From: Planktothrix pseudagardhii
Lineage (GTDB): Bacteria > Cyanobacteriota > Cyanobacteriia > Cyanobacteriales > Microcoleaceae
Direction of reading: 5' to 3'
Assembly (NCBI RefSeq): GCF_904830925.1
Contig: NZ_LR882967.1
Coordinates: 3,426,106 to 3,490,105 of the forward strand
Length of the DNA: 64,000 nt
In this document: positions 1 to 34,112 of the stretch, in pieces
Numbering within the stretch: the first letter of the stretch is position 1
Layout of the letters: each line of letters starts with the position of its first letter
The notes under the pieces: model-generated
What the model was told of the DNA's origin: nothing
The model's database searches: none
Seen by the model: the letters and a program-made list of their open reading frames with translations, nothing else
Position numbers and translations under genes: made by a program

Positions 1-884
1 TAGCACCAATATTTATCAGAGTCAGCGAACAAGAAATTAGTCCTAATGCTACAGTCTTTAATCGGTTTTTGATTTCTACTGTCATCCTTGGGGTTTGGGA
101 GATCATCACAATTATCAGTAGTAAAGTATCCCAGAAACCCCCTAAACCCCAGGAGTCTTGGACTCTTCAGGATATAGGATTATTTGTACTAGCTGCGGGT
201 TTTGGTGCGGCTAATTTAACGGCTTGGGCTTGGTCTTTAACTCAAACCAATATCGCTAATTCCAATTTATTGCATAATTTCACCCCATTCTTTGCCACTT
301 TAGGCGGTTGGCTATTTTTAAAACACAGGTTTGACAGCAAATTTATTATGGGTTTGATTTTAGCTTCAGTCGGTGCGTTAACTATTGGTTTTGAAGATTT
401 TAACTTAACGAGCACTCATTTTAGAGGAGATGCGATCGCTTTACTTTCATCTGTATTTTATGCGGGCAATGCTCTCTGTGCAGAAAAACTACGAGCTAAG
501 TTTTCGGCAACAACTATCATATTATGGAGTTGTTTGTTCAGAACTCTTTGGCTGTTACCCATAACTTTGATTTTTGATGATCAAATTTTTCCCATTTCCG
601 TGAATGGATGGTTAGCCGTAATTTCCCTCGCACTTTTCTGTCAAGTTCTAGCGACGGTGATTATGTTCCATAACCTGAAAAAGTTTTCATCAGGTTTTGT
701 ATCTTTGTTTCTGTTGCTTGATCCAATTATTACTGCCATATTAGCCTGGGTAATATTTTCCGAAAAGCTCACTATCCTCAACTGGGTAGCATTTTTCGCT
801 GTGTTGGCTGGGATATATTTAGCTAAATCTGCTCAAGGTTCTCAGAAAGCAGCCATTCAAGAAATTACTGTTGACTCAGACTAA
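1..884 (+). CDS. DMT/EamA-family membrane transporter, 5' end probably outside window. The frame is open from position 3, and the track start at 69 is TTG.
   Basis: About 10 predicted TM helices with two-repeat EamA-like topology. Open frame continues to the window edge. Confidence 0.55.
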   Translation, partial: APIFIRVSEQEISPNATVFNRFLISTVILGVWEIITIISSKVSQKPPKPQESWTLQDIGLFVLAAGFGAANLTAWAWSLTQTNIANSNLLHNFTPFFATLGGWLFLKHRFDSKFIMGLILASVGALTIGFEDFNLTSTHFRGDAIALLSSVFYAGNALCAEKLRAKFSATTIILWSCLFRTLWLLPITLIFDDQIFPISVNGWLAVISLALFCQVLATVIMFHNLKKFSSGFVSLFLLLDPIITAILAWVIFSEKLTILNWVAFFAVLAGIYLAKSAQGSQKAAIQEITVDSD

Positions 885-2007
885 ATATTTTTGTCTCGGC
901 TCCAATGCTAAATCAGTAATAAAAATTAGCAAATTTCAGCACCCCCTACTCTCTGTTTCTAAACATTCCATGACACCAGAATTAACAACTTGGGTAGCAG
1001 ACCTAGAAAGATTACTAGGTCAAATTCTTGAATATTTTCGCAGTCAAATCTTCCATCACCTTAATGGTAGCCGTCGCCTTTATTGGCTATATTTATTAAC
1101 TTCTCTGTTATTGGCTGGACTGGTTTATTGGCGATCGCAACCTAAGTCTGATCTTAACTTTAAAGGATTTCTTAGTTTTTGCTTCCCCAAAGAAATCTAC
1201 TTTCATCCTTCAGCCCTGCTAGATTATCAAATCTTTATCATCAATAATATTCTCGCTCCTGGTAATTTGCGTTTAGCGTGGTTTGAAACATCATTAGTAG
1301 CATCTCTAGTCAATAATTTGCTGCAAGCAACCTTTGGTTATTTTGGCGGATTCACAACCGAAAACTTGGGATCGCTCGTGATTTTTACCCTCTTATTTGT
1401 TGCAGTTTTTGACTTTGCATCTTACCTTAACCATGCTTGGCATCACCAAAATCCTATCCTGTGGCAATTTCACAGTCTACATCATTCCAGTGAAGTCTTG
1501 ACCCCCATTAGTTTATATCGTTCTCACCCCTTATATGAACTTAATAAAAAGCTGATTACTACAGCCATCAGCGCTCCTTTACGAGGGATACTAATTTATC
1601 TATTTTTTGGTAAAATCCATGTTATAACTCTATTTGGTCTGAATTTTTTGGTCGCTCTATATTATATGGCAGGTGGTAATCTTGCCCATTCTCACATCTG
1701 GCTTGATTATGGAAAGATAGGGAACCATATTTTTATAAGTCCAGTTCTACACCAAATTCATCACAGCATAGCACCCCAACACATTAACAAGAACTACGGG
1801 GAGTTTTTGGGAATTTGGGACTGGATGTTTGGGACTTTATATCTACCCGAAAAAGAGGAAAAATTAGAATTTGGTATTGGCAAAAACCAACCTCAGCCTT
1901 ATCCGACTTTAACCCAGGCTTATTTAGATCCGGTAGTCAATGCCATTAATTTACTAATTGCCAAAATTCCTGGAAAAAGTGGAATTAAAACCATTAACTT
2001 GGATTAA
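871..2007 (+). CDS. Fatty acid hydroxylase superfamily protein (sterol-desaturase-like). An alternative start is the ATG at 970 (MTPELTTW...).
   Basis: Histidine boxes HAWHHQNP, HSLHHS and HQIHHS in a multi-TM protein. The 871 start overlaps the upstream gene by 14 nt. Confidence 0.6.
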   Translation: MTQTKYFCLGSNAKSVIKISKFQHPLLSVSKHSMTPELTTWVADLERLLGQILEYFRSQIFHHLNGSRRLYWLYLLTSLLLAGLVYWRSQPKSDLNFKGFLSFCFPKEIYFHPSALLDYQIFIINNILAPGNLRLAWFETSLVASLVNNLLQATFGYFGGFTTENLGSLVIFTLLFVAVFDFASYLNHAWHHQNPILWQFHSLHHSSEVLTPISLYRSHPLYELNKKLITTAISAPLRGILIYLFFGKIHVITLFGLNFLVALYYMAGGNLAHSHIWLDYGKIGNHIFISPVLHQIHHSIAPQHINKNYGEFLGIWDWMFGTLYLPEKEEKLEFGIGKNQPQPYPTLTQAYLDPVVNAINLLIAKIPGKSGIKTINLD

Positions 2008-2012
2008 ATATT

Positions 2013-3134
2013 ATGCTATTAACGAAAGGCTTTGAATTAGAAATATTTCTGGGTACTCCCCAAGGTGATCCGATTCCTTTGGCTGAAAAAATTATCGGCA
2101 AAGTGGATAGGTTTATGCAAGAAACAGACGAGCGCCATATAGAATATACAACTGAACCTCTTGCCAGCTATAACCAGCTTTTAAGTCAATTAATATTACC
2201 GCGAATTCAACTCAGAAAATATCTCCAAACCTTGGGAGAATATACCCTAATTCCTGGAAGTACATTATCATTAGGAGGAAGCGATCGCTTTTATCGTTCA
2301 GGAGATACAAATCCTTATTTAGAATATATTGAGCGCAACCACGGAACTAATGTGGTTACTGCTAGTGTTCATATCAACATTGGTTTTAGTGATCCAGAAC
2401 TGCTGATCCGAGCTTGTCGGCTGATTAAAATGGAAGCACCCTTATATTTAGCCTTAAGTGCTTCCTCTCCATTTCTGGATAATCAAATTACGGGTTATCA
2501 CTCTACACGCTGGCACATTTTACCCCATTCTCAATATCATATTCCCCTATTTGAAAATCAGGCCGAATATATTGAATGGGTAGAAGGACATTTAGCCACA
2601 GGAACAATGTTTAATGTTCGTCATCATTGGGATAATGTTCGACCCAATGGCGATCGCCGACCTTATGATCTTAATCGGCTAGAACTCAGAATTTGTGATT
2701 TAGTGACAGATCCTCATTCTCTTCTGGCTATTACCGCTTTGTTAGAAGCGCGGCTTTTGCAATTGATTAATGATCCGAGAATTGACCCTTTAGAAATGAG
2801 TCAATTACCAGCAACAACCCGGAAACAAGACTTAATTGATTTAACAAAAGCGAATGAAGCCGCCGTCAAAGTATCTAGTTTAGAAGCTGAGTTAAGACAT
2901 TGGCAAGACGGTAGAAAAATTCTAGCTCGACATTGGATTAATGAAATTTATAATGATGTTTTGCCCTTCGTAAAACAGCAAGGCTTTGAGCATTTTCTCT
3001 TACCTATACAAACAATTTTACAGGAAGGAAATACTGCACAAAAGTGGTTAAAAATGTATGATCAAGGTACTGATATTCGCTCAATTATTACCCAAGATAT
3101 TCAAGAACTGGTCAAGCAAGAACTTGACCATTAA
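2013..3134 (+). CDS. Glutamate--cysteine ligase family protein (cyanobacterial GshA-like, about 370 aa type).
   Basis: Size and sequence recall the cyanobacterial gamma-glutamylcysteine ligase family. Lies convergent with a glutaredoxin gene. Confidence 0.45.
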   Translation: MLLTKGFELEIFLGTPQGDPIPLAEKIIGKVDRFMQETDERHIEYTTEPLASYNQLLSQLILPRIQLRKYLQTLGEYTLIPGSTLSLGGSDRFYRSGDTNPYLEYIERNHGTNVVTASVHINIGFSDPELLIRACRLIKMEAPLYLALSASSPFLDNQITGYHSTRWHILPHSQYHIPLFENQAEYIEWVEGHLATGTMFNVRHHWDNVRPNGDRRPYDLNRLELRICDLVTDPHSLLAITALLEARLLQLINDPRIDPLEMSQLPATTRKQDLIDLTKANEAAVKVSSLEAELRHWQDGRKILARHWINEIYNDVLPFVKQQGFEHFLLPIQTILQEGNTAQKWLKMYDQGTDIRSIITQDIQELVKQELDH

Positions 3135-3150
3135 GGCAGGTATTCTACAT

Positions 3151-3176
3151 CCCACGCTTGAAAGACGTGGGCTTTG
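3151..3176. terminator. Stem-loop between convergent genes (cccacg-cttgaaaga-cgtggg), likely a bidirectional terminator.
   Basis: 6-bp perfect stem with a 9-nt loop, followed by ctttg. Sits between the gshA-like stop (3134) and the grx stop (3184). Confidence 0.4.
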
Positions 3177-3183
3177 AATACTG

Positions 3184-3441
3184 TTATTGTAAAAGTTCGT
3201 CCAGTTTTCCCTGCTTATCTAATGCGGAAATATCGTCAAAACCACCAATATGTTGATCATTGATGAAAATTTGAGGAACACTCCGTCTGCCATTAGCTCG
3301 TTCTGCCATCTTAGCTCTAGCGTCTTCATCCCCATCAATAGAGTATTCAGTAAATTCAACCCCTTTCTTCTTAAGTAAGGCTTTGGCTCTAGGGCAAAAA
3401 GGGCAATAAGTCCAAGTGTAAATTTCTACTTTAGCAGTCAT
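3184..3441 (-). CDS. Glutaredoxin (GrxC-type, CPFC active site).
   Basis: 85 aa with a CPFC redox motif and a C-terminal glutaredoxin fold signature (GGFDDISAL). Confidence 0.9.
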   Translation of the reverse strand: MTAKVEIYTWTYCPFCPRAKALLKKKGVEFTEYSIDGDEDARAKMAERANGRRSVPQIFINDQHIGGFDDISALDKQGKLDELLQ

Positions 3442-3479
3442 GGTATGTTTAATCGAGGGATATCGTTTTTTATTTTAGC

Positions 3480-4991
3480 GTGATCGACAAAATGATTAAT
3501 CAGAATATCGCCTCTCCTCTACAAGTACAGAAGAGCCATGGCGTGTCTCAATGGCAAAAAATTGCCCCAAAATTTGAGGCGGTTGTGGGTAAAAAAGGAG
3601 TTGTCCAACGTCAGGAAGAATTGCTCACCTATGAATGTGATAGTTTAACAAGCTATCGTCAACGTCCCGCATTAGTGGTACTACCCCGCACTACTGAACA
3701 AGTAGCAGAGGTAGTAAAAATCTGTTATGAAAACCAAATTCCTTGGGTGACGCGGGGTGCGGGAACAGGTTTATCTGGAGGTGCACTACCCGTTGAAGAT
3801 TGTGTTTTAATTGTCACCACCTTAATGAACAAAATCTTAAAAGTTGACCTAGAAAATCAGCGAATTATTGTGCAAGCTGGTGTGATCAATAATTGGGTGA
3901 CTCAAGCCATTAGTGGTAAAGGTTTTTATTATGCACCAGATCCTTCCAGTCAAACGGTTTGTACAATTGGGGGTAACATTGCGGAGAATGCGGGGGGTAT
4001 TCATTGCTTGAAATATGGAGTAACAACGAATCATGTCTTGGGATTAAAATTGGTAATTCCTGACGGTTCTGTAGTTGATGTTGGGGGAATCATTTCAGAA
4101 ATGCCCGGTTATGATCTCACGGGTTTATTTATCGGTTCAGAAGGCACTCTAGGTATTGCCACAGAAATTACTTTACGCATTATTAAAACACCTGAAGCCA
4201 TTGGTACTGTTCTAGCAGACTTTACCACTATTGAAGCCGCAGGTGATACGGTTACTCATATTATTAGTGCTGGAATTATTCCGGCGGCAATGGAATTAAT
4301 GGATGGGACTACGATTAAAGCGATTGAAGATGTTATTAATACCGGATGTTATCCTAGAGATGCTGCGGCAGTTTTGTTGATAGAGGTTGATGGTTTAGGA
4401 GTAGAAGTTGAAAGCAGTAAACAGCAGGTTGCTAAAATTTGCCAACAAAACGGAGCCAGAAATGTAATAATTGCTAGTGACGAACAAAGGCGAATAAAAC
4501 TTTGGCAAGGACGTAAAACAGCCTTAATTGCATTAGGTTATCAAAGTCATTATTTTCTTCAAGATGGAGTGATCCCTCGGACTCAATTAGTCGCTGTTCT
4601 TAAGGAAATTTCAGCTTTAGGAAATCAATATGGGTATCGTATTGCTAATGCCCTTCATGCGGGTGATGGCAACTTACATCCAGTCATTCTTTATGATCAT
4701 GCCGTTCCTGGTGCTTTTAAACAGGTAGAAGAATTAAGTGGCGAAATTCTAAAACTTTGTGTGAGAGTGGGTGGAAGTATTTCTGGAGAACATGGTATTG
4801 GTGCTGATAAAAAATGTTTGATGCCGGAAATGTTTAATCATATTGATTTAGATACCATGCAATGGCCGCGCCTAGCTTTTAATCCTCAAGGTTTGGCAAA
4901 TCCAGGTAAGATGTTTCCCACACCCCCGACTTGTGGTGAAGCTGCACAGGCTCAAAAAATGGGGCGGTTTTCAGATTTAGAAGTATTTTAG
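3480..4991 (+). CDS. glcD: Glycolate oxidase subunit GlcD (FAD-linked oxidase).
   Basis: FAD_binding_4-type N-terminus (RGAGTGLSGGALP) and a FAD-oxidase C-terminal domain. About 500 aa. Confidence 0.8.
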   Translation: MIDKMINQNIASPLQVQKSHGVSQWQKIAPKFEAVVGKKGVVQRQEELLTYECDSLTSYRQRPALVVLPRTTEQVAEVVKICYENQIPWVTRGAGTGLSGGALPVEDCVLIVTTLMNKILKVDLENQRIIVQAGVINNWVTQAISGKGFYYAPDPSSQTVCTIGGNIAENAGGIHCLKYGVTTNHVLGLKLVIPDGSVVDVGGIISEMPGYDLTGLFIGSEGTLGIATEITLRIIKTPEAIGTVLADFTTIEAAGDTVTHIISAGIIPAAMELMDGTTIKAIEDVINTGCYPRDAAAVLLIEVDGLGVEVESSKQQVAKICQQNGARNVIIASDEQRRIKLWQGRKTALIALGYQSHYFLQDGVIPRTQLVAVLKEISALGNQYGYRIANALHAGDGNLHPVILYDHAVPGAFKQVEELSGEILKLCVRVGGSISGEHGIGADKKCLMPEMFNHIDLDTMQWPRLAFNPQGLANPGKMFPTPPTCGEAAQAQKMGRFSDLEVF

Positions 4992-5147
4992 TGATCTGGG
5001 TTTTGGGGAGTAGAGGCGAGGTGTTTGTCTGTGAAGGGGGAGTGCCCACTGCCATAGCGTGAAACGTTGACAGTGGTATTTCACTTAGGCATTGTAACAA
5101 TGGTAGTATGTCGTAGATGTGCTGTATGTAACTTTTGAGTATTAATA

Positions 5148-6893
5148 ATGGGGAAAATAGAAAAAAGGGATTCAACTTTAGTAGACATACTACGGGATCA
5201 GGCCGTTGCTCAACCTAACCAAATAGCATTTAAGTTTCTTCCAAATGGAGAACAAGAATCAGATCAATTAACCTATCAAGAATTGGATCAAAAAGCCAGA
5301 GCAATTGCCTATCAACTGGGTCAGAAAATTAATCGGGGCGAAAGAGTATTATTATTATATCCACCCGGTTTAGAATTTATTAGTGCTTTTTTTGGATGTT
5401 TATATGCTGATGCGATCGCAGTTCCTGTTAATCCTCCTCGACCCAACAGACCAGCAACTCGGCTTTTAACAATCAAATCAGATTCACAAGCAACATTAGC
5501 ACTAACTACAACATCTCTATTCAGCAAACTCAAATCACAACTAACTCATTATCCCGAATTAGCAACTTTACCTTTAATAGTTAGTGATGAAATCAGTATT
5601 GATCTAGCTTCAAATTGGGAGAAATCAACAACAACAATAGATTCTTTAGCTTTTCTCCAATACACATCTGGATCGACAGGAACACCAAAAGGAGTAATGG
5701 TAACTCATGGTAATTTACTCCACAATTCGCAGTATATCAAACAAGCCTTTCAACTGACACAAGACAGTATATCGGTTAGCTGGCTACCCAGTTTTCATGA
5801 TATGGGTCTAATTGATGGAATTATTCAGCCTTTGTACACTGGATTTATGGGCGTATTGATGAAACCTGAAAGTTTTATCCAACACCCTTGGCGATGGCTA
5901 CAGGCAATTACAAACTACAAAGCAACCCACTGCGGCGGGCCTAATTTTGCCTACGATCTTTGCGTTCAGAAGATTACCAATGAACAACTTGAAACCTTCG
6001 ACCTCAGTAGCTGGGAAAGTGCTTACAGTGGTTCTGAACCCGTGCGGAGAGAAACTTTAGAGCGTTTTATTGCTAAATTTGCCCCTTGTGGTTTCCCGGC
6101 TAAGAGTTTTTATCCCTGCTATGGGATGGCTGAATCTACCTTAATGATTTCAGGGGGACTGGTTCAAGAAGAACCCATTTACTGCACCGTTGCAGCCGAC
6201 GCATTAGAGCAAAATGGGGTGACAGAAGCATCTAAAGACGTTGAAAATGTTAGACATCTCGTTGGATGTGGACGAGGTTGGCTAGATACCAAAATTGTCA
6301 TCGTTGAACCCGAATCTTTTCAGCAATGTCATTCAGGTCAAGTCGGGGAAATCTGGGTATCGGGTGAAAGTGTTGCCCAAGGCTATTGGAACCAACCGGA
6401 ACTTTCAGAACAAGCCTTTGGAGCTTATCTAGCAGATCCTCATCATGGGCCGTTTCTCCGCACTGGAGATCTAGGATTTTTGCGAGAGGGTGAGCTATTC
6501 ATCACGGGACGGATGAAAGATATGATTATTATTAGAGGTCGCAATTATTACCCCCAAGATATTGAAATAACAGTAGAAACCAGCCATCCAGCGTTGCGAG
6601 GCAATTGTTGTGCAGCTTTTGCAATAGAAAAAGATAATACAGAGCAGTTAGTCATAGTAGCTGAAGTCGAACGGACACATTTACGACATCTGAATGTCAA
6701 AGAGGTCGTAGCAGAAATCGGCGAAGCCATCATGCAGCAACATGAAATCCAGGCTTATGGCACGGTACTGATTAAAACGGGGAGTATTCCTAAAACTTCC
6801 AGTGGCAAAATTCAACGGCGTATTTGCAAAGAAAAGTTTCTGTGCGAAACTCTCAATATTGTCGGGGGAAAGATTGGAAAATCGGAGTTATAA
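5148..6893 (+). CDS. Fatty acyl-AMP ligase (FAAL, standalone adenylation enzyme).
   Basis: AMP-binding motifs YTSGSTGTPKGV and GRMKDMIIIRGRNYYPQDIE. Size and N-terminus are typical of FAAL rather than acyl-CoA synthetase. First gene of the desaturase/ACP cassette. Confidence 0.8.
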   Translation: MGKIEKRDSTLVDILRDQAVAQPNQIAFKFLPNGEQESDQLTYQELDQKARAIAYQLGQKINRGERVLLLYPPGLEFISAFFGCLYADAIAVPVNPPRPNRPATRLLTIKSDSQATLALTTTSLFSKLKSQLTHYPELATLPLIVSDEISIDLASNWEKSTTTIDSLAFLQYTSGSTGTPKGVMVTHGNLLHNSQYIKQAFQLTQDSISVSWLPSFHDMGLIDGIIQPLYTGFMGVLMKPESFIQHPWRWLQAITNYKATHCGGPNFAYDLCVQKITNEQLETFDLSSWESAYSGSEPVRRETLERFIAKFAPCGFPAKSFYPCYGMAESTLMISGGLVQEEPIYCTVAADALEQNGVTEASKDVENVRHLVGCGRGWLDTKIVIVEPESFQQCHSGQVGEIWVSGESVAQGYWNQPELSEQAFGAYLADPHHGPFLRTGDLGFLREGELFITGRMKDMIIIRGRNYYPQDIEITVETSHPALRGNCCAAFAIEKDNTEQLVIVAEVERTHLRHLNVKEVVAEIGEAIMQQHEIQAYGTVLIKTGSIPKTSSGKIQRRICKEKFLCETLNIVGGKIGKSEL

Positions 6894-6953
6894 ATTCCTT
6901 GAGTTTTAAATTTTCCCCTGCTATTTAAACCTAGGTAAATTGAGGAAAGATCA

Positions 6954-7940
6954 ATGTCTATACCCGTGGATAGCCCAACACCCAATATAAGCCCCAAGAT
7001 CACCCTAGAAAATGATTATCTTAAATCCCTGCAACAGCGTTACGCCTTTGCTACTATCTTGATTCCTTTTTTTGGGTTATTAATAGCCATTTATACAACT
7101 TTTAAGTTTGGGATCAGTTCAGTAGACATTGGACTATTTCTGGTCATGTATACCTTGACAATGCTGGGAATAACAGTGGGTTTTCATCGACATTTTGCTC
7201 ACGGTGCTTTTAAGACAAATACAGTCATTAGAATCCTGTTAGCAATATTAGGATGTATGTCCGCTCAAGGGCCTGTTATTCAATGGGCAAGTATTCACCG
7301 TCGGCATCATAAGTATAGCGATCGCCCAGGGGATCCCCACTCCCCCTTAATATACAAAGGAGAAAAATGGGCAACTCTGCGGGGATTGTGGCATGGTCAA
7401 GTTGCTTGGATGTTGAACAGTGACGTTACCAATACGGTTGTTTTTGCTAAAGACTTGCTCAGAGATCCAATAATTACCAAAGTCAATCGTTTCTATCTGA
7501 CTTGGGTTATCCTGGGTTTAGCCATTCCGGCAATTGTAGACGGACTTCTCACGGGAACTTGGATAGGCATTTTACAAGGATTTCTCTGGGGGGGATTGGT
7601 GCGAATCTTTTGTGTTAATCATGCCTTTTGGACGATTAACTCCATTGCTCACTATTATGGACAACGCCCCTTTGATACCGAAGAGCAAAGCCACAACACA
7701 TTCTGGCTATCTCTAGCCAACTTTGGAGAAGCTTGGCATAACAATCATCATGCTTTTCCACACTCAGCCTTGTTAGGTCTGAAATGGTGGCAAATTGATA
7801 TTGGCGGTGGGGTGATTCTGGCTCTCCAAAAAGTAGGTTTAGCTTGGGATCTCAAAACCCCCACAGCCGGGATGATTGCAGAAAAGTTGAAGGTTAACAA
7901 ACAGTCAGAAAATTTAACAATAGATGCCAGCAATTTCTAG
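6954..7940 (+). CDS. Membrane fatty-acid desaturase, copy 1 (Delta9/JamB-like family).
   Basis: Three His boxes (HRHFAH, HRRHHKYSD, HNNHHAFP) and 4 TM. Confidence 0.8.
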   Translation: MSIPVDSPTPNISPKITLENDYLKSLQQRYAFATILIPFFGLLIAIYTTFKFGISSVDIGLFLVMYTLTMLGITVGFHRHFAHGAFKTNTVIRILLAILGCMSAQGPVIQWASIHRRHHKYSDRPGDPHSPLIYKGEKWATLRGLWHGQVAWMLNSDVTNTVVFAKDLLRDPIITKVNRFYLTWVILGLAIPAIVDGLLTGTWIGILQGFLWGGLVRIFCVNHAFWTINSIAHYYGQRPFDTEEQSHNTFWLSLANFGEAWHNNHHAFPHSALLGLKWWQIDIGGGVILALQKVGLAWDLKTPTAGMIAEKLKVNKQSENLTIDASNF

Positions 7941-7964
7941 TAAACTTGACTGAATCCGGATTTT

Positions 7965-8966
7965 TTGCACTGCCAAATTTTTGTATTGCGTCATCTATTA
8001 GGAGTTCAGAGAATGACAACACATTTCGATACTGCCATACCCAATCAGAAGACAAAGGTTATTAGCAATGACTACATTAAAGGACTGCAATATAAACATT
8101 TTTGGTGGTACAATTTCATTCCCTTTTTAGGAACAATTGTGGCGATCATTTCTCTTTTGTGGCTACCCATTGGGCCAATCGAGATCGGAATGCTGATTGT
8201 GATGTGGGCTTTGACCATGACCGGGGTGAGTGTCGGTTTTCATCGCTACTATACCCATCGTGCTTTTAAAACTCACCAGAGCATTCGGGTGATATTCGCC
8301 ATATTGGGTTCTGTAGCTGCCCAAGGGCCCTTAATTTCCTGGGTAGCCGTTCATCGTCGCCATCATGAGTGCAGTGATCTACCCGGTGATCCCCATTCCC
8401 CTAATCTTCACGGTCAGGGATTTCTCGGAACTCTCAAGGGATTATGGCATTCCCATGTTGGCTGGCTGATTGATCATGATTATCCTAATCCAACCTATTA
8501 TGCCCCTGAACTCCTGCGAGATCAAAGCATATCCAAAATTAGCCGATTGTATCTAGTTTGGGTGCTTCTGGGTCTAGCGATTCCTACTATGATCGGCGGA
8601 CTACTTCATTTGTCCCTAATAGGAGCATTGCAAGGCTTTCTTTGGGGTGGTGTTGTGCGCCTGTTTATTGTAGATAACATCATATTGAGCGTTAATTCCG
8701 TCTCTCATGTTTATGGGACTCGTGGTTTTAAGACAGGCGATCAAAGCAAGAATAACCCTTGGGTGGCTATCCCAACGTTTGGCGAGTCTTGGCAAAACAA
8801 TCACCATGCGTTTGAAAGCTCTGCTGCTATCGGTTTGAAAGGGTGGCAAATTGATATTGGTTATGCAGTAATTTGGATCTTGGAAAAATTAGGCTGGGCT
8901 TGGGATGTAAATCTGCCCACCGCCAAGATGATAGAGGCGAAAACAATTACCCTAGCTCAGGATTAA
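7965..8966 (+). CDS. Membrane fatty-acid desaturase, copy 2. Likely start at 8016 (MTTHF...).
   Basis: His boxes HRYYTH, HRRHHECSD and QNNHHAFE. An RBS-like aggag precedes the ATG at 8016. Confidence 0.8.
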   Translation: MHCQIFVLRHLLGVQRMTTHFDTAIPNQKTKVISNDYIKGLQYKHFWWYNFIPFLGTIVAIISLLWLPIGPIEIGMLIVMWALTMTGVSVGFHRYYTHRAFKTHQSIRVIFAILGSVAAQGPLISWVAVHRRHHECSDLPGDPHSPNLHGQGFLGTLKGLWHSHVGWLIDHDYPNPTYYAPELLRDQSISKISRLYLVWVLLGLAIPTMIGGLLHLSLIGALQGFLWGGVVRLFIVDNIILSVNSVSHVYGTRGFKTGDQSKNNPWVAIPTFGESWQNNHHAFESSAAIGLKGWQIDIGYAVIWILEKLGWAWDVNLPTAKMIEAKTITLAQD

Positions 8967-9003
8967 AGTCCCGACTACAAAACTTATGTAGGTTGAGCCA
9001 ACA

Positions 9004-9936
9004 ATGCAAGCAATCACAATTAAAAGCGATCGCCTGAAAAGACAACAAGAAATTCACGGCATCAGCAATCTCATCATTCCCTTAAGCGGATCTGTAGCAG
9101 CAGTAGTCCTGGCTTTTCAGATCGGTGTTAGTGCCGTAGATATCTGGCTATTGCTAATTATGTATTTTTTAACAGCGATTGGCGTAACAGTAGGGCTGCA
9201 TAGACACTTTGCCCACTGCGCCTTCGGGGCTAATCAGACGGTGAGAATTATCCTGGCTGTCCTGGGTTCTATGGCCGCAGAAGGCCCCCTCAATTATTGG
9301 GTAGCCACCCATCGCCGTCACCACAAATACAGCGATACCCCCGGAGATCCCCATTCTCCCTTTGTTAAAGAAGAGCAAAAATTGGGCTTTTTAGAAGGGG
9401 TATGGCATTCTCATGTCGGTTGGACATTCAATCATGAACTCACGAACACCTTTGTCTTTGCTAAAGACATGGTGCGAGATCCCATGCTGAACAGAATTAG
9501 CCAACTTTATTATTTGTGGCTATTTTTGGGAGTAGCGATTCCTGGTGTTATTGGTGGAGTAATCACCGGAACTTGGATGGGGGCGTTGACCGGAACATTA
9601 TGGGGCGGCTTTCTCCGTATCTTCCTTCAACACCATTTAGGTTTTTGGACGGTTGGCTCTCTGGCCCATCTCTTAGGAAATCGTCCCTTTGAGACTGACG
9701 ACTATAGCCGCAATAACCTCTGGGTTGCCTTGTTCACCTGTGGAGAATGGCACAACAACCACCATGCTTTTCCTTATGCGGCTATTCATGGTTTCCACTG
9801 GTGGCAAATCGATGTCGGTGGCTTCGTGATTCGACTACTGGAAAAGCTAGGTTTGGTTTGGGACTTGAAAATGCCTACAGCCGAAGCGATCGCCGCTAAA
9901 AAAAGAAAGGTGAGTTGTAATGAAGCCTGCAACTAG
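9004..9936 (+). CDS. Membrane fatty-acid desaturase, copy 3.
   Basis: His boxes HRHFAH, HRRHHKYSD and HNNHHAFP. Confidence 0.8.
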   Translation: MQAITIKSDRLKRQQEIHGISNLIIPLSGSVAAVVLAFQIGVSAVDIWLLLIMYFLTAIGVTVGLHRHFAHCAFGANQTVRIILAVLGSMAAEGPLNYWVATHRRHHKYSDTPGDPHSPFVKEEQKLGFLEGVWHSHVGWTFNHELTNTFVFAKDMVRDPMLNRISQLYYLWLFLGVAIPGVIGGVITGTWMGALTGTLWGGFLRIFLQHHLGFWTVGSLAHLLGNRPFETDDYSRNNLWVALFTCGEWHNNHHAFPYAAIHGFHWWQIDVGGFVIRLLEKLGLVWDLKMPTAEAIAAKKRKVSCNEACN

Positions 9937-10002
9937 CCTTCAAGTTGAGCATTAAACCCAGAAAAGCAATGATTAACCGCAATCATAAACCTAGCTGATC
10001 CA

Positions 10003-10968
10003 ATGATTACAGAGCCTCTTGTTAATCCAGACAAAAGACAAAAAACCGTCACAGCCCCTCACCTGAGAGTTCCTCAAACCATACACTTCATCTTGTTTGA
10101 AGTTGTACCTTTTTTGGGATTCATCACCGCCATTGTTTTACTATTGTTCGGAATTCCTATGACTTGGGTGGACTTAGGGCTGTTTATCAGTTTGTGGTTC
10201 TTAACTCAAATTGGCTTTACTGTGGGTTGGCATCGCCTTTTTAGCCATAATGCGTTTAAAGCTAATGTCGTTGTTAGAGTGACCTTAGCAATTCTAGGTT
10301 CTATGGCAGACCCTGGCCCCTTGCTGTTGGCAGTAGCCGCCCATCGTCGTCATCATGAATATGCCGATCAACCCGGAGATCCTCATTCTCCCCATCTTTT
10401 TGGAGAAGGAGTTACGGATCAGATCAAAGGCTTTTGGCACGCTCATGATGGCTGGTTAGCGACCAACAGAGAACACCCCAATACCATCCACTATGTTCCA
10501 GACTTACTGCGGGACAAAGCCCTAACAACAGCGAGCCGATATTATTGGCTGTGGGTGATTTTAGGACTGGTCATTCCTGCTATCCTAGGCGGTGTTTTGA
10601 CAAACTCATGGCTGGGAGCTTTTCAAGGCTTTCTTTGGGGAGGACTGGTGCGGATGTTCTTTGTCAATAACCTCATCAATGGCGTCAACTCTTTTTGTCA
10701 CGTCCTTGGCGGTCGCTCCTTTAATACCCCTGATCACAGCCGGAACAATCTCTGGCTGGCTCTTCCTTCCTTGGGTGAAGGATGGCACAATAGTCACCAT
10801 GCTTTTCCGCAATCAGCCATTTTTGGTTTCGACTGGTGGCAAGTTGATATCGGGGGCTGGGTTGTCCTCATTTTAGAAAAGCTGGGTTTAATTTGGGATG
10901 TCAAGATTCCTAAAGCCGATACTATCAAAGCTAAAAAAGCTTTTTTAGCAGCTAGAAAGGCAACATAG
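10003..10968 (+). CDS. Membrane fatty-acid desaturase, copy 4.
   Basis: His boxes HRLFSH, HRRHHEYAD and HNSHHAFP. Confidence 0.8.
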   Translation: MITEPLVNPDKRQKTVTAPHLRVPQTIHFILFEVVPFLGFITAIVLLLFGIPMTWVDLGLFISLWFLTQIGFTVGWHRLFSHNAFKANVVVRVTLAILGSMADPGPLLLAVAAHRRHHEYADQPGDPHSPHLFGEGVTDQIKGFWHAHDGWLATNREHPNTIHYVPDLLRDKALTTASRYYWLWVILGLVIPAILGGVLTNSWLGAFQGFLWGGLVRMFFVNNLINGVNSFCHVLGGRSFNTPDHSRNNLWLALPSLGEGWHNSHHAFPQSAIFGFDWWQVDIGGWVVLILEKLGLIWDVKIPKADTIKAKKAFLAARKAT

Positions 10969-11177
10969 CAGGATACTAAAATCTATCTCGTCTACTGTCT
11001 TAATTATGAACCTAATTTTCTTGTTTTAGAAATTTAATGTTCACTCATAAAAACCCAGAAAAAAACCCAGAAATTTAGGTTTATAATTTAGGGAAGGGAC
11101 TTTTAACGACCCAATCCATTGCTCCCATTTTTGGTGAGCAAAATTTTTATCCCAGACCCATTCAGGAAAAAATTATC

Positions 11178-11450
11178 ATGGCAATTCAAAATCAAGAAAT
11201 CGCTGTTGAAACCCACAAGAACCAATCTGCTATTCAAGGCTGGTTGGTTTCTTATATAGCCCAACTTCTGGAAATTGATCCCAAGGAAGTTGATGTTAAA
11301 GCTTCTTTTGACCGCTATGGCTTGGATTCCTCAGCGACTATTGGATTAACTAGCGATTTAGAGAACTGGTTGGGAGGTTCTATTGATCCAACCATAACCT
11401 ATGATTATCCTTCAATTGAGTCTTTATCAAAACATCTAGCTGGATCATAA
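11178..11450 (+). CDS. Standalone acyl carrier protein (PP-binding).
   Basis: 90 aa with a YGLDSS motif at the expected phosphopantetheine-attachment serine. Last gene of the FAAL-desaturase cassette. Confidence 0.7.
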   Translation: MAIQNQEIAVETHKNQSAIQGWLVSYIAQLLEIDPKEVDVKASFDRYGLDSSATIGLTSDLENWLGGSIDPTITYDYPSIESLSKHLAGS

Positions 11451-11548
11451 GCTAATTTAGTTCTGAAAAAATATTAAACCCCTTGCTATTGGCTAGGGGT
11501 TTAAAAATTAGAGATTTAAAATATTTGTAAAATTAGAAATTAACAGAT

Positions 11549-11656
11549 ATGGAAACTATTAATTTCACCGTAAACCACATAAAAGTGTCTTCAGAAAAAT
11601 CCTTTGCCCAAGTGACAATGGCTATAGAGTCAATGGTTGGTAAAGCTAAGGAATGA
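11549..11656 (+). pseudogene. N-terminal fragment (35 aa) of a DUF302-family gene, ending just before the IS.
   Basis: ATG...METINFTVNHIKVSSEKSFAQVTMAIESMVGKAKE*. Homologous to the N-terminal extension of the DUF302 ORF on the other side of the IS. Confidence 0.45.
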
Positions 11657-13045
11657 AAAATCAATAAATGGATTAATGAGTGAGTTGAGGTACGGCTCGA
11701 TAGTTCCATTTGGGTAAATATTCATCAAAAACAATTTTCAGAGTTTTTTTGAAATGATCAGTTACCTTCCGACCCGTTTGATAGACCTGATCAACGACAT
11801 TAACAACGACAGATAGCCCTGTATTAGTACGAGTTTTTTCCATGAGAGTTTTGACCAAACCAAGACTGGTAAAAATCACTCCTTGACAAGCTCGAGTTAG
11901 ATGAGGAAAAAGTCGATGTTCAATGGGATTATATTTAGATGTATAGGGAGGGTAATGAGCAATTCTGATCTCAATTCCAATTTCATCCACTAACTTTTGT
12001 AAATCTTGTTTAAAAATATAATGATTAGCATTATTACTGCCACCCCCATCACACTTAGCTAAAATCGAATTGGCATGAGGATAGAGAGCTTTTCCATAAT
12101 GATTCCACCAATGTTTAAGAGCATTACAAGCAAATTCACTGGTATCTTTACTGTTACCTAATGTTACATATCCTCGGTTTTTTTGAGTATCGTAAATGCC
12201 ATGGGGAATGACTTTTCCATGACCTAAGCTCCAAAAATCATGATCCCAAGTAGTAACAGGCTCAGTTGTATACAGAGTACCTGGACGATATAAATTCCCT
12301 AAAACTTCTTTCTTTTTAGTGTCAAAACTAATAATAGGATTACCGGCTTCTCTATACAGGGTATCGAGTCTAGCAATATTTTCAAATTGAGCATTTCGGT
12401 CTTTATTAATTCCTGTAGTTTGCTTTTTTTGTGCTTTTCGCTTGACATACCCATGCTTTTTTAAGAGTTTCTTTACGGTGGGAGGACTGATATTAAATCC
12501 GGCTTCCTTAAGTCCCAAAGCAATTTCTTTGTGGGTTAAATTAGTCCATTTAATTGACTCGTTCATAGGATCTCCGGCTGTGCGGGACTTTAACACTTCT
12601 AAAAAGGCTTCATCTATTCCAATTTGGGTGGAAAAAATACTTTTTCTTCCTCCTCCTTTTTTTCTAATTCTTACATCATTAATAGTCTGTTCATCCAGTT
12701 CTTTTAACTCTTTTATTCCTCGGACGATTGTGTTTCGAGTACAACCCAACAGTTTGATGATATAACTAATTCCTCCCCATCCCAGTTTTTGAGCCTCTAT
12801 CGCTGCATATCTTCTTTTATCCTTTTCTGATAAAGAGTTATAAAACTTTTTCATTTCTTCCTCAATTGAACTAGAATAAAACATAGGTTTTAAGTTAAGT
12901 TGTGTAGTTTAATCGAAAAATCCGTTGCCCGGTTCTCTCAATTTTTGTAAAATCTGCCATCAGTGCCTATACTTCATTATACCTGAAGCCCATCAAGTTA
13001 TTACTTTTTCATTCCTAATAATCTGATTTTTCAAAAGCTGATCGA
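11657..13045 (-). mobile_element. ISAzo13-family-like insertion sequence. Boundaries approximate and terminal IRs not resolved.
   Basis: Single 403-aa transposase, flanked on both sides by fragments of DUF302 genes. Confidence 0.45.
11673..12884 (-). CDS. ISAzo13-family transposase.
   Basis: 403 aa. The N-terminal HTH region (MKKFYNSLSEKDKRRYAAIEAQKLGWGGISYI) and overall architecture recall the cyanobacterial ISAzo13-like DDE transposases. Confidence 0.75.
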   Translation of the reverse strand: MFYSSSIEEEMKKFYNSLSEKDKRRYAAIEAQKLGWGGISYIIKLLGCTRNTIVRGIKELKELDEQTINDVRIRKKGGGRKSIFSTQIGIDEAFLEVLKSRTAGDPMNESIKWTNLTHKEIALGLKEAGFNISPPTVKKLLKKHGYVKRKAQKKQTTGINKDRNAQFENIARLDTLYREAGNPIISFDTKKKEVLGNLYRPGTLYTTEPVTTWDHDFWSLGHGKVIPHGIYDTQKNRGYVTLGNSKDTSEFACNALKHWWNHYGKALYPHANSILAKCDGGGSNNANHYIFKQDLQKLVDEIGIEIRIAHYPPYTSKYNPIEHRLFPHLTRACQGVIFTSLGLVKTLMEKTRTNTGLSVVVNVVDQVYQTGRKVTDHFKKTLKIVFDEYLPKWNYRAVPQLTH

Positions 13046-13409
13046 TGCAAATGCCTCTTTTACAGAAGTAGAAAATGCAGTTAAATCAATGGTGGGTAAA
13101 AATGATTTAATGATTTTTACACACCTTGAATCTGGTAAAGTGCTTTCCTTATGTGGCAAATTTAAACAAGCTAAACTTTATATAATGGGTAATCCCCTGA
13201 TTGCGAATCAAATGTTTGAAGAAGACCCGGCAGTCGGTCTTTACGTTCCCCTGCGATTGTTTGTGTATGATGAATATAATGGCAAAACTTATATTACCTA
13301 TGATCAACCTTCATCTCTATTAGGTAGATTTGAGAATCCGAAAATTTTGAGAGTTGCAGAAATGCTCGATCAAAAGCTCCAAGAATTAGTAACAATGGCT
13401 GTCCAATAG
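12987..13409 (+). pseudogene. DUF302-domain gene lacking a start codon for its N-terminal part. The track ORF 13089..13409 is the startable remainder.
   Basis: The frame is open from 12987 and encodes ...ASFTEVENAVKSMVGKNDLMIFTHL...GNPLIANQM...DPAVGLYVPLRLFVYDE... (DUF302 signature). There is no Met before 13089. Confidence 0.45.
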
Positions 13410-13541
13410 TATAGCAAAAATTAGAATTAACCCGGAGTTTAGTATTGGTGAACGACCGCTTCTTCAGTATCCCGGTTAATTGAGGGTTATGTTTACTGTA
13501 GAGAGGGTTTAGGAGATCTACACTCAAAAATCTTATATGAA

Positions 13542-13748
13542 TCAACTTTTAGGGGTTGCAAAACCAGAGTAACGGGGAAGAAAGATTATGGTTCCCCCGT
13601 CGATTTGAAAACGGTTTTGTTGTTGAGTGACGGTAGAATTTATCGGTAAGGTTCCATCTGGGATGATTTGAGCTTGAACAGAGATAGACGCACTGGTTAG
13701 GGTGAAGGCAATCAGACCTAATGGCCATTGGGGGGATGTCATGGGCAC
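13542..13748 (-). pseudogene. Remnant of a TPS (two-partner-secretion) filamentous hemagglutinin N-terminal domain gene.
   Basis: Signal peptide, then AQIIPDGTLPINSTVTQQQNRFQIDGGT, which is the canonical start of the haemagglutination-activity domain. The ORF stops after 68 aa. Confidence 0.5.
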
Positions 13749-13819
13749 AAAAGAGGAACTGAGTTTAAATTCTCTCTTGAGTATATCAGGAAACTGTCGC
13801 GTGCGGTTGTTATCGGAAA

Positions 13820-13971
13820 CAGGACTTACGCAGTGACGCTACAGATATAGCACTACGCATTACAGTTAGGACATTTCTAAATCCTGAAACCCTTTCACTT
13901 CTTACTGTTCGGTGTTCGGTGTTCGGTGTTCCCTCTTCAAGTAGCGCTATAGCGTCACTGGGTAAGTCCTG
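13820..13971. repeat. About 150-bp inverted-repeat element enclosing a (TGTTCGG)x3 tandem repeat.
   Basis: Left arm caggacttacgcagtgacgctacagatatagcactac is matched by the reverse complement of gtagcgctatagcgtcactgggtaagtcctg (about 30 bp, few mismatches). The tgttcgg copies lie at about 13905-13928. Confidence 0.5.
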
Positions 13972-14065
13972 AGATGTTAATGGGATAAAGCCGATATCCC
14001 TGGGAAATAAGATTTAATTGTATCCTTCATAGTTTTGTAACGTTAGTGAGGGGTTCACGTTTCTA

Positions 14066-24662: not shown

Positions 24663-25271
24663 TTACAACCATAACCTTTGCAACTCCCTACAAGCATAAC
24701 GTAGAGAAGGCAAAGCAATAGCATCGACTCCTTGAGGACATATTTCTCTAGCCAATATTCTAGCTGATCTTTCCGCTAATTCAATCCTCTCTTCTGGACT
24801 CATTGTTTTATCTTTATAATCAGTCATCTCATCACAGTGATGACTTGACGGATAGCTATTAATATAACGAAACCACGTTTCAATATTTCGAGCTGGTACA
24901 AAAATAGCAACTTTATCACCAGATTTTCGAGGATCTTGGTTTAACTTACCTGCTGTTTCGTCTAATGCTATATGTAAAGAACGCATTCTATGAGATAGGG
25001 TATCGTTATCAGCATCAATCATCACTACTACAGCAATATTTCTATAGTTACGACTTCTATAACTGTTAATAAGCTTTGGATAATACCTGACAATCAAAGC
25101 ATTGTTATTCTTAATTGTTTGCCCTTTAGGATTGCCAAAGTCTTTAATTTTGCGCTTGTTAAATCCCCGACAGATCAAATATTCTCTAATAAATCGCTCT
25201 TGGTCAATATCTTCACAGAGAATAGTTACTTCTGGTAAATCATAATATCTACTCGTCATAAATCCATCCAA
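24663..25271 (-). CDS. Small TOPRIM-like (DUF4276-like) putative nuclease partner of the upstream ATPase.
   Basis: 202 aa. An N-terminal strand carries a conserved Glu (VTILCEDIDQE), then a DxD motif (VVVMIDADND), as in OLD/TOPRIM-clan domains. Overlaps the ATPase gene 3' end. AT-rich. Confidence 0.5.
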   Translation of the reverse strand: MDGFMTSRYYDLPEVTILCEDIDQERFIREYLICRGFNKRKIKDFGNPKGQTIKNNNALIVRYYPKLINSYRSRNYRNIAVVVMIDADNDTLSHRMRSLHIALDETAGKLNQDPRKSGDKVAIFVPARNIETWFRYINSYPSSHHCDEMTDYKDKTMSPEERIELAERSARILAREICPQGVDAIALPSLRYACRELQRLWL

Positions 25272-26415
25272 GTTCTATAAGTTTAGCAACTGATAAACCT
25301 TCTTTATTATCAGTAATTCGCTGTACGCGGACAGTTTCATTATCTTCTCGTTCAAACCAATAACCTGAATTGCTTGCTAAGTAATTAATTAATGATGGGT
25401 GATGAGAAATTAACATTACTTGTGCTTCATTGTTAACACAATACTCCATCACCTGATCCCACCAAGGTCTTATTTCCGGTAAAGCTAGGAAATTTTCGGG
25501 TTCATCAATACACAACGTAAAATTCTCATCAGGAGAACAATATATTAAGGTATATAGCGCAATCAAAACTTTTTGACCTTGCGATAATTCATTAAGTCGA
25601 TAAGTAGTTTTGCTAGGACGGGTAAAAGATGCTGATAAAATCCTAACATCACCAGATTTAGGATTTTGAAATGAATCAAATCCCTTGATAATATTTTGTA
25701 ATTCCAGCGTTAGTTTAAGTATTTTACCTTGAGATTCCTGAGATAAATAGCTGTACCAAGCTGCATAGTTTGACATATCCCAAGTCGGCAAACTTGCCTC
25801 CTGACGGCTTTCTGATTCCATGACAAAAGGGTTGATCTCGACAATAAAAAAGTTAGCAATCCTTTTTTTGAACCAGGTCAGCTTTTGATTGTCAGGTCTT
25901 TCATAAATAAAACCAATACCAGAACGCGACCAATCAAAAAACGGTAAAAAAGCACCTTCACGATTAGGATCGTCATTATAAAGCCTAGCTTGACCTACAG
26001 GCATACCTCTATCGCCCGCATCAACCCAGAAATTAAATAGAGGTTGTCCGTCAAAAGTTAAGCTTTCTAGTCGCATTCTAGGAGGTGCATACTCTCCTTG
26101 ATGTTCGATCTCTAGGGTATATTTATAAATGCCACCATTTCCTTGAATATCCAATTCAAATTTTTGAATCTGGGATTTTTGCCATCTTGTTAAATCATTG
26201 TTTTTAAACAAATCTGATACTTTATAATCTTGTTGGAAAGCTTGATCACCTATAATAAATTTTTGTAGTTTTCTTAAAACATCAAAAACAGTAGTTTTTC
26301 CCGAACCATTTGAACCTAGAAAGAGATTTAAGCTATCTAATGTCAATTCAAAATTGACTAGGCATCTAAAGTTATTAACATAGATCCGCGTCAGCATATT
26401 TTTTGTGATTAGCAA
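25249..26415 (-). CDS. ABC-type (AAA_21/AAA_15-like) ATPase, OLD/PARIS-AriA-like. Probable real start is the ATG at 26397.
   Basis: Walker A GSNGSGKTT, ABC signature-like LSQGQK, Walker B LCIDEPE and H-loop ISHHP. AT-rich relative to flanks. Confidence 0.75.
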   Translation of the reverse strand: MLITKNMLTRIYVNNFRCLVNFELTLDSLNLFLGSNGSGKTTVFDVLRKLQKFIIGDQAFQQDYKVSDLFKNNDLTRWQKSQIQKFELDIQGNGGIYKYTLEIEHQGEYAPPRMRLESLTFDGQPLFNFWVDAGDRGMPVGQARLYNDDPNREGAFLPFFDWSRSGIGFIYERPDNQKLTWFKKRIANFFIVEINPFVMESESRQEASLPTWDMSNYAAWYSYLSQESQGKILKLTLELQNIIKGFDSFQNPKSGDVRILSASFTRPSKTTYRLNELSQGQKVLIALYTLIYCSPDENFTLCIDEPENFLALPEIRPWWDQVMEYCVNNEAQVMLISHHPSLINYLASNSGYWFEREDNETVRVQRITDNKEGLSVAKLIELGWIYDE

Positions 26416-32211: not shown

Positions 32212-32260
32212 AACGGGTAAATATTTTTCTAATAATTCTATTGTTTTCTATTTTAAGGGT

Positions 32261-34063: not shown

Positions 34064-34112
34064 TCGAGATTATCATAAAAACATTGCCAGATCTTAAATG
34101 AAGTAAGCCGGA

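Follow-up and report, generated by a model that had tools for sequence, protein, structure and literature searches.

We analyzed a 64,000-nucleotide stretch of Planktothrix pseudagardhii DNA (NZ_LR882967.1, positions 3,426,106 to 3,490,105; hereafter the window), which carries at positions 5148-11450 a cassette of six genes encoding one fatty acyl-AMP ligase (FAAL), four membrane desaturases (Des1-4) and a standalone acyl carrier protein (ACP). All six open reading frames are present on the plus strand, as a first-pass annotation made from the sequence had proposed. The JamA-like FAAL (5148-6893; 581 amino acids (aa); AMP-binding, 1.7e-68) has only fatty acyl-AMP ligases among its best NCBIfam and PDB relatives. 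It is followed by Des1 (6954-7940), a JamB-like membrane desaturase of the Delta9 family; by Des2 (8013-8966), whose third histidine box reads QNNHH; by Des3 (9004-9936), in which a G replaces the conserved N of the NSxxH motif; and by Des4 (10003-10968), which is intact in the window. Each desaturase matches Pfam FA_desaturase, with E-values from 1e-14 to 1e-24. The last gene encodes a JamC-like ACP (11178-11450; 90 aa; PP-binding, 5.9e-14) with the motif GLDSS. The five spacers from FAAL to ACP measured 60, 24, 37, 66 and 209 bp, in agreement with the 24-210 bp given earlier. An arrangement of this kind is clearly not due to chance. A hairpin with 18-nt arms and a 5-nt loop (11469-11509, inverted repeat I3) lies just 3' of the ACP gene and may be a terminator, as judged from its sequence. 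Promoter and terminator scans of the window gave no signal above the shuffled background, an Rfam search of the window gave no match, and exact-sequence look-ups of the window Des1 and FAAL returned no match.

The four desaturases share 46-51% pairwise identity and carry an HxxxxH box, an HRRHH box and a third histidine box. All belong to the Delta9 (stearoyl-CoA) desaturase family, of which the SCD1 structures are the sole solved relatives. The first-pass annotation had described them as three-His-box paralogues of 310-333 aa; the families, the boxes and the degree of divergence bear this out, but the length and the third box of Des2 need correction. The Des2 open reading frame could open at TTG 7965, but the ATG at 8013 is the likelier start because the protein is called at 317 aa in all relatives. 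Its third box is QNNHH and not HNNHH, and the Q is kept in all Des2 orthologues of four-desaturase cassettes. All Des3 orthologues carry the G in place of N at the NSxxH site, which aligns with the NSAAH motif of mouse SCD1. The two changes (H to Q in box 3 and N to G in NSxxH) are combined in a single desaturase of Streptomyces sp. Mg1 (L091_10017; L numbers denote our comparison loci), which lies in a polyyne-type cluster.

The cassette was reported to end at an ISAzo13-like element and was therefore suspected of being a truncated or trans-acting module. The identity of the element stands: an insertion sequence (IS) of the ISAzo13 family occupies 11650-13016 on the minus strand, with 25-nt terminal inverted repeats and a transposase gene (11673-12884) that scores 488.6 bits against NF033519 (cutoff 200). 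It forms a 1.37-kb insertion relative to Planktothrix tepida PCC 9214 (L088), where the site is empty, with an overlap of about 4 bp at the junctions. The suspected truncation does not hold, as the element interrupts a DUF302 gene downstream of the ACP gene and leaves the cassette complete. The 5' part of the DUF302 gene (11549-11649, plus strand) is collinear with the intact 163-aa DUF302 gene of P. tepida PCC 9214 up to position 11649, and the 3' part (about 13015-13409, plus strand; Pfam DUF302, 1.9e-12) shows 98% DNA identity to L088 19635-20085. The IS is not part of the cluster; it hits DUF302 only and leaves the stretch from FAAL to ACP intact. The possibility that the IS truncated a downstream polyketide synthase (PKS) was ruled out, since the element has clean ends within DUF302. 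A second insertion of 596 bp (13466-14061), also relative to P. tepida PCC 9214, lies between DUF302 and a CitMHS transporter gene. It contains a 25-nt inverted repeat (13820-13844 and 13947-13971) and GTGTTCG tandem repeats near 13900-13933, and its sequence looks like that of a miniature inverted-repeat transposable element (MITE).

Five further genes lie upstream of the FAAL gene. The first encodes an EamA-family transporter (1-884, plus strand; Pfam EamA, 1.2e-29) whose 5' end is cut by the window edge, with about 97 nt missing; the protein is 326 aa long in L088, and its gene adjoins the PKS gene or the FA_hydroxylase gene in L001, L088, L092, L104 and L105. The second (970-2007, plus strand) encodes a membrane di-iron enzyme of the FA_hydroxylase superfamily (Pfam FA_hydroxylase, 1e-20; weak OlsE-like match), which is 345 aa by comparison with orthologues, within a frame open from TTG 871. 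It is followed by a gene for a GshA-like glutamate-cysteine ligase of the GCS2 family (2013-3134, plus strand), which scores 550.1 bits against TIGR02048 (gshA_cyano; cutoff 249). A dithiol glutaredoxin (Grx) gene with a CPFC active site lies on the minus strand at 3184-3441 (Pfam Glutaredoxin, 2e-24). The fifth gene (3492-4991, plus strand; frame opening at GTG 3480) encodes a GlcD-like FAD-linked 2-hydroxyacid oxidase or dehydrogenase with FAD_binding_4 and FAD-oxidase_C domains; its score against TIGR00387 (559.6 bits) falls just below the cutoff of 567.9.

The exact GshA sequence encoded at 2013-3134 was found in P. tepida PCC 9214 (GCA_904830955.1), and window positions 1-11649 are 99.5% identical to the chromosome of that strain over 11.6 kb. 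The order in P. tepida is PKS (minus strand), an IS605-family gene, EamA, FA_hydroxylase, gshA, grx, glcD, FAAL, Des1-4, ACP, DUF302 and CitMHS. The PKS is a protein of 1663 aa encoded at 1232-6223 of L088 on the minus strand, and further PKS genes of this type lie at L104:3391-8529 and L105:3976-8748. In Planktothrix the PKS gene is about 8 kb from the cassette, on the opposite strand. Because the window opens 97 nt inside EamA and L088 is 99.5% identical, the PKS gene is predicted to start about 1.8 kb beyond the left edge of the window. An IS200/IS605-family OrfB/TnpB gene was also observed between PKS and EamA in P. tepida (L088:6355-7590).

Wherever a related genome offered sufficient flanking sequence, the PKS was found together with the cassette. 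It directly adjoins the cassette in metagenome loci L006, L007 and L104 and in L098-L103 from Dolichospermum/Aphanizomenon populations, and the same five-gene block separates the two in L001, L088, L092 and L105. The earlier statement that no PKS, nonribosomal peptide synthetase (NRPS) or thioesterase follows the cassette is thus true inside the window but is an artefact of where the window was cut, as a PKS with a thioesterase domain accompanies the cassette in relatives. The rest of the 64-kb window contains no PKS, NRPS, phosphopantetheinyl transferase or rubredoxin.

The conserved set consists of 13 genes (FAAL, Des1-4, ACP, PKS, EamA, FA_hydroxylase, GshA-like, Grx, GlcD-like and DUF302) and was found in five gene orders. 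The first, in metagenome loci L104, L007 and L006, is collinear (21 kb in L104): FAAL, Des1-4, ACP, PKS, EamA, FA_hydroxylase, gshA, grx, glcD and DUF302. In the second (L098-L103), FA_hydroxylase, gshA, grx and glcD converge on DUF302, ACP, Des4-1, FAAL and PKS, and the sequence retrieved for these loci showed no EamA. The remaining three orders are those of Anabaena sp. UHCC 0187 (L105), of a metagenome-derived genome (L092) and of Planktothrix (the window, L088 and L001). FA_hydroxylase, grx, glcD and DUF302 were present in every island copy. The cassette is about half of a conserved 13-gene natural-product cluster, and the five upstream genes and DUF302, which the first-pass annotation overlooked, are part of the same unit.

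We compared the window with the other island copies. Relative to the Nostocales copies, protein identities were 82-83% for FA_hydroxylase, 90% for GshA, 91-96% for Grx, 86-87% for GlcD, 81% for FAAL and 88-92% for the desaturases. With the metagenome copies included, FA_hydroxylase is 82-85% identical and its ratio of nonsynonymous to synonymous divergence (dN/dS) is 0.18-0.23. Grx is 91-96% and GlcD 86-90% identical across island copies, the latter with a synonymous divergence (dS) of 0.39-0.49. Between Planktothrix and the ADA-clade Nostocales, dS was 0.33-0.59 for the upstream block and the cassette alike. Vertical inheritance since Oscillatoriales and Nostocales diverged would have left the genes saturated at synonymous sites; it follows that the whole set passed horizontally, and fairly recently. 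The dN/dS was 0.08-0.21 for the cassette genes (FAAL 0.09-0.18, Des4 0.10-0.14) and 0.02-0.23 for the block genes, and the genes tested evolve under purifying selection. Judged from these divergences, the 13-gene set is horizontally mobile between the two orders and kept under selection.

In Planktothrix, the named carriers comprise P. tepida PCC 9214, P. pseudagardhii, P. mougeotii LEGE 06226 and Planktothrix sp. FACHB-1365; in Nostocales they comprise Aphanizomenon sp. CS-733/32, Dolichospermum sp. LEGE 00240 and Anabaena sp. UHCC 0187 (GCA_009712035.1). L098 is flanked by housekeeping genes of Dolichospermum/Aphanizomenon, with DnaG, IF3 and IlvN being Aphanizomenonaceae proteins. Our literature searches found nothing on this cassette, PKS or island; unknown NRPS/PKS genes have been reported in this lineage (Entfellner et al. 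2022).

The GshA-like ligase of the island is set apart from the ordinary enzyme. It is 63-66% identical to ordinary cyanobacterial GshA, whereas the ordinary proteins are 69-93% identical among themselves. Six island copies form a clade with 100% bootstrap support on a stem of 0.22 substitutions per site, and the midpoint root parts them from all 58 sampled ordinary sequences. At 26 of the 129 positions that are invariant in ordinary GshA the island proteins are altered; these changes are mostly fixed and several are non-conservative. Among island copies, the window protein is 88-90% identical to those of L098, L104 and L105, with a dS of 0.33-0.39. The idea that the five upstream genes are ordinary housekeeping genes was ruled out by their co-transfer with the cassette and by the divergent GshA. 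The first-pass annotation had held that conservation of the cassette beside primary lipid-metabolism genes would refute its Jam- or polyyne-like reading. Formally the cassette is conserved beside genes with primary-metabolism names, but this does not count as a refutation, as those neighbors are island-specific, co-transferred copies.

The relationships of the desaturases were examined in a neighbor-joining tree of 54 sequences and 300 alignment columns, built without authentic JamB, TtuB, Cay/Pgn or DesC proteins. A scan of the genome collection with Des1 returned mostly single-copy actinobacterial desaturases, which were used as the outgroup; a metagenome scan with Des4 returned three short contigs with no gene context. 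Des1, Des2, Des3 and Des4 each formed an orthologue group with 100% bootstrap support, and each group spans four lineages (Planktothrix, Dolichospermum-like, metagenome and Xenococcaceae copies), which argues that the quadruplication is old and that each copy is specialized. Des2 is sister to Des4 with 75% bootstrap support. Of the four, Des1 comes closest to desaturases that occur singly in FAAL-desaturase-ACP cassettes feeding PKS/NRPS lines (L010, L011 and L013); its nearest relatives outside its own orthologue group come from such cassettes and are 59-66% identical, among them P0006 and P0008 (61-66%). The ‘JamB-like’ label of Des1 is putative and rests on this gene context, as authentic JamB lies outside the comparison. 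Ordinary DesC enzymes would be expected to be vertically inherited with no FAAL, ACP or PKS nearby; the island desaturases are instead four tandem copies in a transferred island that also encodes a FAAL, an ACP and a PKS.

Related desaturase cassettes were also observed elsewhere. In a Xenococcaceae metagenome-assembled genome the four-desaturase cassette is preceded by an NRPS with formyltransferase-C-A-PCP domains (L009:3787-7359), and the contig ends just past the ACP gene. A Leptolyngbyaceae genome carries four desaturases with a multimodular PKS, and Aquabacterium carries three desaturases with a PKS. A Nostoc metagenome-assembled genome encodes a Des2 orthologue of 85% identity (L011:11754-12707) in the company of a FAAL, two acyl-CoA dehydrogenase-like genes, two Jam-type desaturases, two ACPs and an AONS-like aminotransferase.

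Earlier, the cassette had been likened both to the JamA/JamB/JamC cassette of jamaicamide-type pathways and to bacterial polyyne clusters. The first likeness is well founded for an acyl-modification cassette of secondary metabolism: a FAAL, a desaturase of the Delta9 family and an ACP, with FAAL and ACP both standalone, follow one another and pass the chain to a type I PKS, and the FAAL (55-59% identical), the ACP (55-61%) and Des1 (59-66%) are closest to cyanobacterial FAAL-desaturase-ACP cassettes of the Jam type. The island differs in having four specialized desaturases in place of one and, as receiver, a single KS-AT-ACP-oxygenase-TE protein in place of a long PKS/NRPS line. It also keeps six more genes, those for EamA, FA_hydroxylase, GshA-like, Grx, GlcD-like and DUF302.

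The receiving PKS has the domain order ketosynthase (KS), acyltransferase (AT), ACP, luciferase-like monooxygenase (LLM) and thioesterase (TE). The Cys-His-His residues of the KS are preserved, as are the Ser and His of the TE. The LLM of the P. tepida PKS scores 493.8 bits against TIGR04020 (MupA/Atu3671 family; cutoff 244.45) and matches the oxygenase domain of PuwE (PDB 6KET) at 1.2e-125. MupA alpha-hydroxylates ACP-bound thioesters (PMC10952193), and the 2-hydroxyl that puwainaphycins carry on their 3-amino-2-hydroxy acid has been attributed to the Ox domain of PuwE (PMC4219810). Like the PuwE-type systems (puwainaphycin and, probably, microginin-type 3-amino-2-hydroxy acid modules) and the MupA alpha-hydroxylation bimodule of mupirocin, the island PKS has an FMN-dependent LLM, placed right after its ACP. 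The island PKS differs from the PuwE-type systems in having no aminotransferase or downstream NRPS, the oxygenase being followed directly by the TE, an arrangement that was rare among the best 120 database matches; it differs from MupA in that the LLM is fused in cis to a KS with all catalytic residues. Two orphan PKS loci of P. tepida PCC 9214, PPL2 and PPL3 (8 and 6.2 kb), were described as having no significant database similarity and no known product (Pancrace et al. 2017, PMC5259702). They resemble the island PKS in species and in being small PKS loci, and the island PKS may be one of the two; that report differs in that desaturases are not mentioned and a link to the cassette is not described.

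We consider it likely that, within a conserved 13-gene biosynthetic island of secondary metabolism, the cassette forms the half devoted to acyl priming and desaturation. The product, read from the gene families, would probably be a highly unsaturated, oxygenated fatty-acid derivative, for which our best guess is a polyunsaturated or acetylenic 2-hydroxy acid or 2-hydroxy-3-oxo acid. From family membership, the FAAL would adenylate a free fatty acid and load it onto the standalone ACP, after which the four membrane di-iron desaturases would dehydrogenate the ACP-bound chain in turn to give a polyunsaturated and possibly alkyne-bearing chain. The KS would then take over the chain, the LLM would hydroxylate the alpha-carbon of the ACP thioester and the TE would free the acid, as suggested by homology. 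Addition of one malonyl unit would lead to a 2-hydroxy-3-oxo acid; with an inactive AT the module would act like a MupA-type module and give a 2-hydroxy acid. The later steps are speculative: the GlcD-like enzyme could oxidize the 2-hydroxy acid, the FA_hydroxylase could hydroxylate the product and EamA could export it. The GshA-like ligase and Grx could serve amide or thiol chemistry, or could protect the cell from a thiol-reactive product. The thiol idea is put forward because bacterial polyynes are reported to react covalently with an active-site cysteine (PMC9098870).

Several observations weigh against this interpretation. The PKS itself lies outside the window, and the DUF302 gene, found in every island copy, is split by the IS in this strain. 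The AT domain has GYSLG instead of GHSxG, with the Ser replaced by Cys in the L104 metagenome copy, and the AT of the Anabaena/ADA-clade (Nostocales) proteins has lost the catalytic His through an 82-aa deletion; nevertheless, the AT continues to evolve under purifying selection, with a dN/dS of 0.18-0.25, compared to about 0.1 for KS and LLM. Extension of the chain by the module is uncertain given this odd AT, and the predicted product would be either a 2-hydroxy-3-oxo acid or a 2-hydroxy acid. The pathway decays in some lineages, as seen from damage to Des4 and the PKS in relatives: Des4 is frameshifted in P. mougeotii-like contigs (L001:13048-13972 and L002:6480-7278) and N-truncated in Dolichospermum sp. 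LEGE 00240 (L003:5266-5994), and in L092 the PKS and desaturase genes are broken into fragments. In the desaturase tree the deep nodes lack bootstrap support, and alkyne formation by Des1-4 is a speculative guess from gene families. The island gshA is taken to be an extra paralogue in its hosts from divergence alone, and a named ordinary Planktothrix GshA was not found among the GshA match clusters. In addition, gshA, grx and glcD could be passengers from a donor genome and not pathway genes.

The strongest of the other explanations keeps the same architecture but has the desaturases introduce double bonds only, so that the product would be a polyene or a methylene-interrupted polyunsaturated 2-hydroxy acid with no alkyne. 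We regard this as possible, though on balance unlikely. Each of the four is a member of the Delta9 acyl-CoA desaturase family, their sequences offer no proof of acetylenase activity, and a cyanobacterial review includes natural-product-cluster desaturases that form alkenes as well as alkynes (PMC10088813). On the side of a triple bond, the nearest relatives of Des1 sit in the type of cassette known for terminal alkynes, and three desaturases suffice for four triple bonds in characterized polyyne systems (PMC9828172). The conserved metal-site substitutions shared with a polyyne-type desaturase point the same way.

It is rather improbable that the locus is a decaying remnant that makes nothing in this strain, with the IS and nearby mobile elements marking an ongoing loss. 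The split DUF302 gene, the MITE-like insertion beyond it and the IS605-family gene in L088 would fit such a loss, as would the frameshifted or truncated Des4 genes and the fragmented PKS and desaturase genes of relatives described above. However, the twelve island genes other than DUF302 are full-length wherever the window covers them, and at the protein level they match P. tepida PCC 9214 with 99-100% identity. The set ends with DUF302, a gene of unassigned role.

We also weighed the possibility that the island is a true member of the bacterial polyyne family (cay, pgn, ccn or col type) and yields a free conjugated polyyne fatty acid with a terminal alkyne, formed on acyl-ACP by a complex of desaturases before hydrolytic release. 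The polyyne core consists of FAAL, ACP, three desaturases, thioesterase and rubredoxin (PMC8406139, PMC9828172), and the cluster on pSMg1-1 of Streptomyces sp. Mg1 (L091), with exactly that core, served as the polyyne-type reference; the Burkholderia gladioli plasmid loci L089 and L090 are two-desaturase clusters, not canonical cay, and were set aside. The island resembles the caryoynencin (cay), protegencin (pgn), cepacin and collimonin clusters in combining on one strand a FAAL, an ACP and at least three desaturases that would act on a thiotemplated chain. It also shares the Des2 and Des3 metal-site substitutions with a single desaturase of the reference and has TE activity in the form of a PKS domain. 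The differences are more numerous. A rubredoxin motif scan was negative in the window, L088 and L006 and found the motif in the positive control, L091. A free thioesterase (alpha/beta-hydrolase) is absent among the conserved island genes in all five gene orders, and a TE is found solely as the domain at the C-terminus of the PKS. As its third desaturase the reference has a DesA-like enzyme with no significant similarity to Des1-4 (best E-value 0.011), whereas all four island desaturases are of the Delta9/JamB type. The FAAL and ACP are 38% and 31% identical to those of the reference, compared to 55-61% for the Jam-type cassettes, and in the tree Des1-4 do not cluster with the L091 desaturases, albeit with unsupported deep nodes. 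Release in the island would proceed through a PKS with an interposed, alpha-hydroxylating LLM domain. Membership in the bacterial polyyne family, which had been offered earlier as one of two precedents, is therefore quite improbable and we do not retain it. In its mode of action the island could resemble a polyyne system, in that one thiotemplated chain would be acted on by several desaturases, but it falls outside that family, and the desaturase set was most likely expanded independently within the cyanobacterial Jam-type lineage.

The remaining reading, in which the cassette serves primary lipid metabolism (membrane or hydrocarbon desaturation), gshA, grx and glcD are chance neighbors and the PKS is unrelated, could appeal to the source annotation of the genes as stearoyl-CoA Delta9 desaturases, to neighbors with primary-metabolism names and to a Planktothrix PKS some 8 kb away on the other strand, but it is hardly credible and already largely refuted by the patchy distribution (a few Planktothrix species and some Dolichospermum, Aphanizomenon and Anabaena strains), by the dS of 0.3-0.6 between cyanobacterial orders that marks a recent transfer of the whole set, by the PKS directly adjacent in two other gene orders, by the divergent island clade of GshA and by FAAL-ACP loading, which is a device of secondary metabolism.

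Beyond the assignment of the cassette to a 13-gene biosynthetic island, we put forward a broader proposal only tentatively, and consider it more doubtful than the assignment itself. Through the island, cyanobacteria could make an alpha-oxygenated fatty acid of acetylenic or polyacetylenic type by a route that arose independently of the proteobacterial and actinobacterial polyyne pathway, through quadruplication of a JamB-type desaturase, and in which a neofunctionalized GshA-like enzyme, Grx and the 2-hydroxyacid oxidase conjugate or tailor an electrophilic product or protect thiols. If this were true, the exchange between bloom-forming Planktothrix and Dolichospermum/Aphanizomenon would suggest a role in bloom ecology, for example in allelopathy or in defense against grazers. 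At the time of PMC8406139 and PMC10088813, none of the cyanobacterial polyynes, fischerellin included, had been linked to a gene cluster. Built on a Jam-type scaffold, the four-desaturase cassette is a concrete candidate for multi-desaturase chemistry that arose independently. The four orthologous desaturases, with their distinct conserved metal-site changes, would offer a natural system in which to follow the passage from a Delta9-type enzyme to a regiospecific desaturase or acetylenase, which bears on alkyne-tag engineering. The presence of a divergent GshA, a Grx and a GlcD-like enzyme within the cluster is unusual and hints at thiol chemistry or self-protection. That freshwater bloom-formers carry the island and that it moved recently between orders suggests that the product may matter ecologically. 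The locus also illustrates that a window edge and housekeeping-sounding names can mask most of a cluster.

Three other regions of the window drew attention. The region 32000-40400 has a low GC content (0.345-0.37) and encodes a GMC oxidoreductase, two NAD-dependent epimerase/dehydratases, a UbiA-family prenyltransferase and, at 32261-34063, a 600-aa protein with no Pfam match; from this gene content it may be a cell-envelope glycan or lipid module. At 24663-27794, an AAA_21/AAA_15 ATPase gene (25249-26415) lies between open reading frames of 202 and 401 aa that have no Pfam match, and the GC skew is strongly positive at 26-28 kb; this arrangement may represent a defense-type module. In the region 46670-53015, a gene for a 500-aa DUF5331 protein (47573-49075), also with strongly positive GC skew, lies between chlL and chlN and is followed by a C5 cytosine methylase and an IS630-type transposase.

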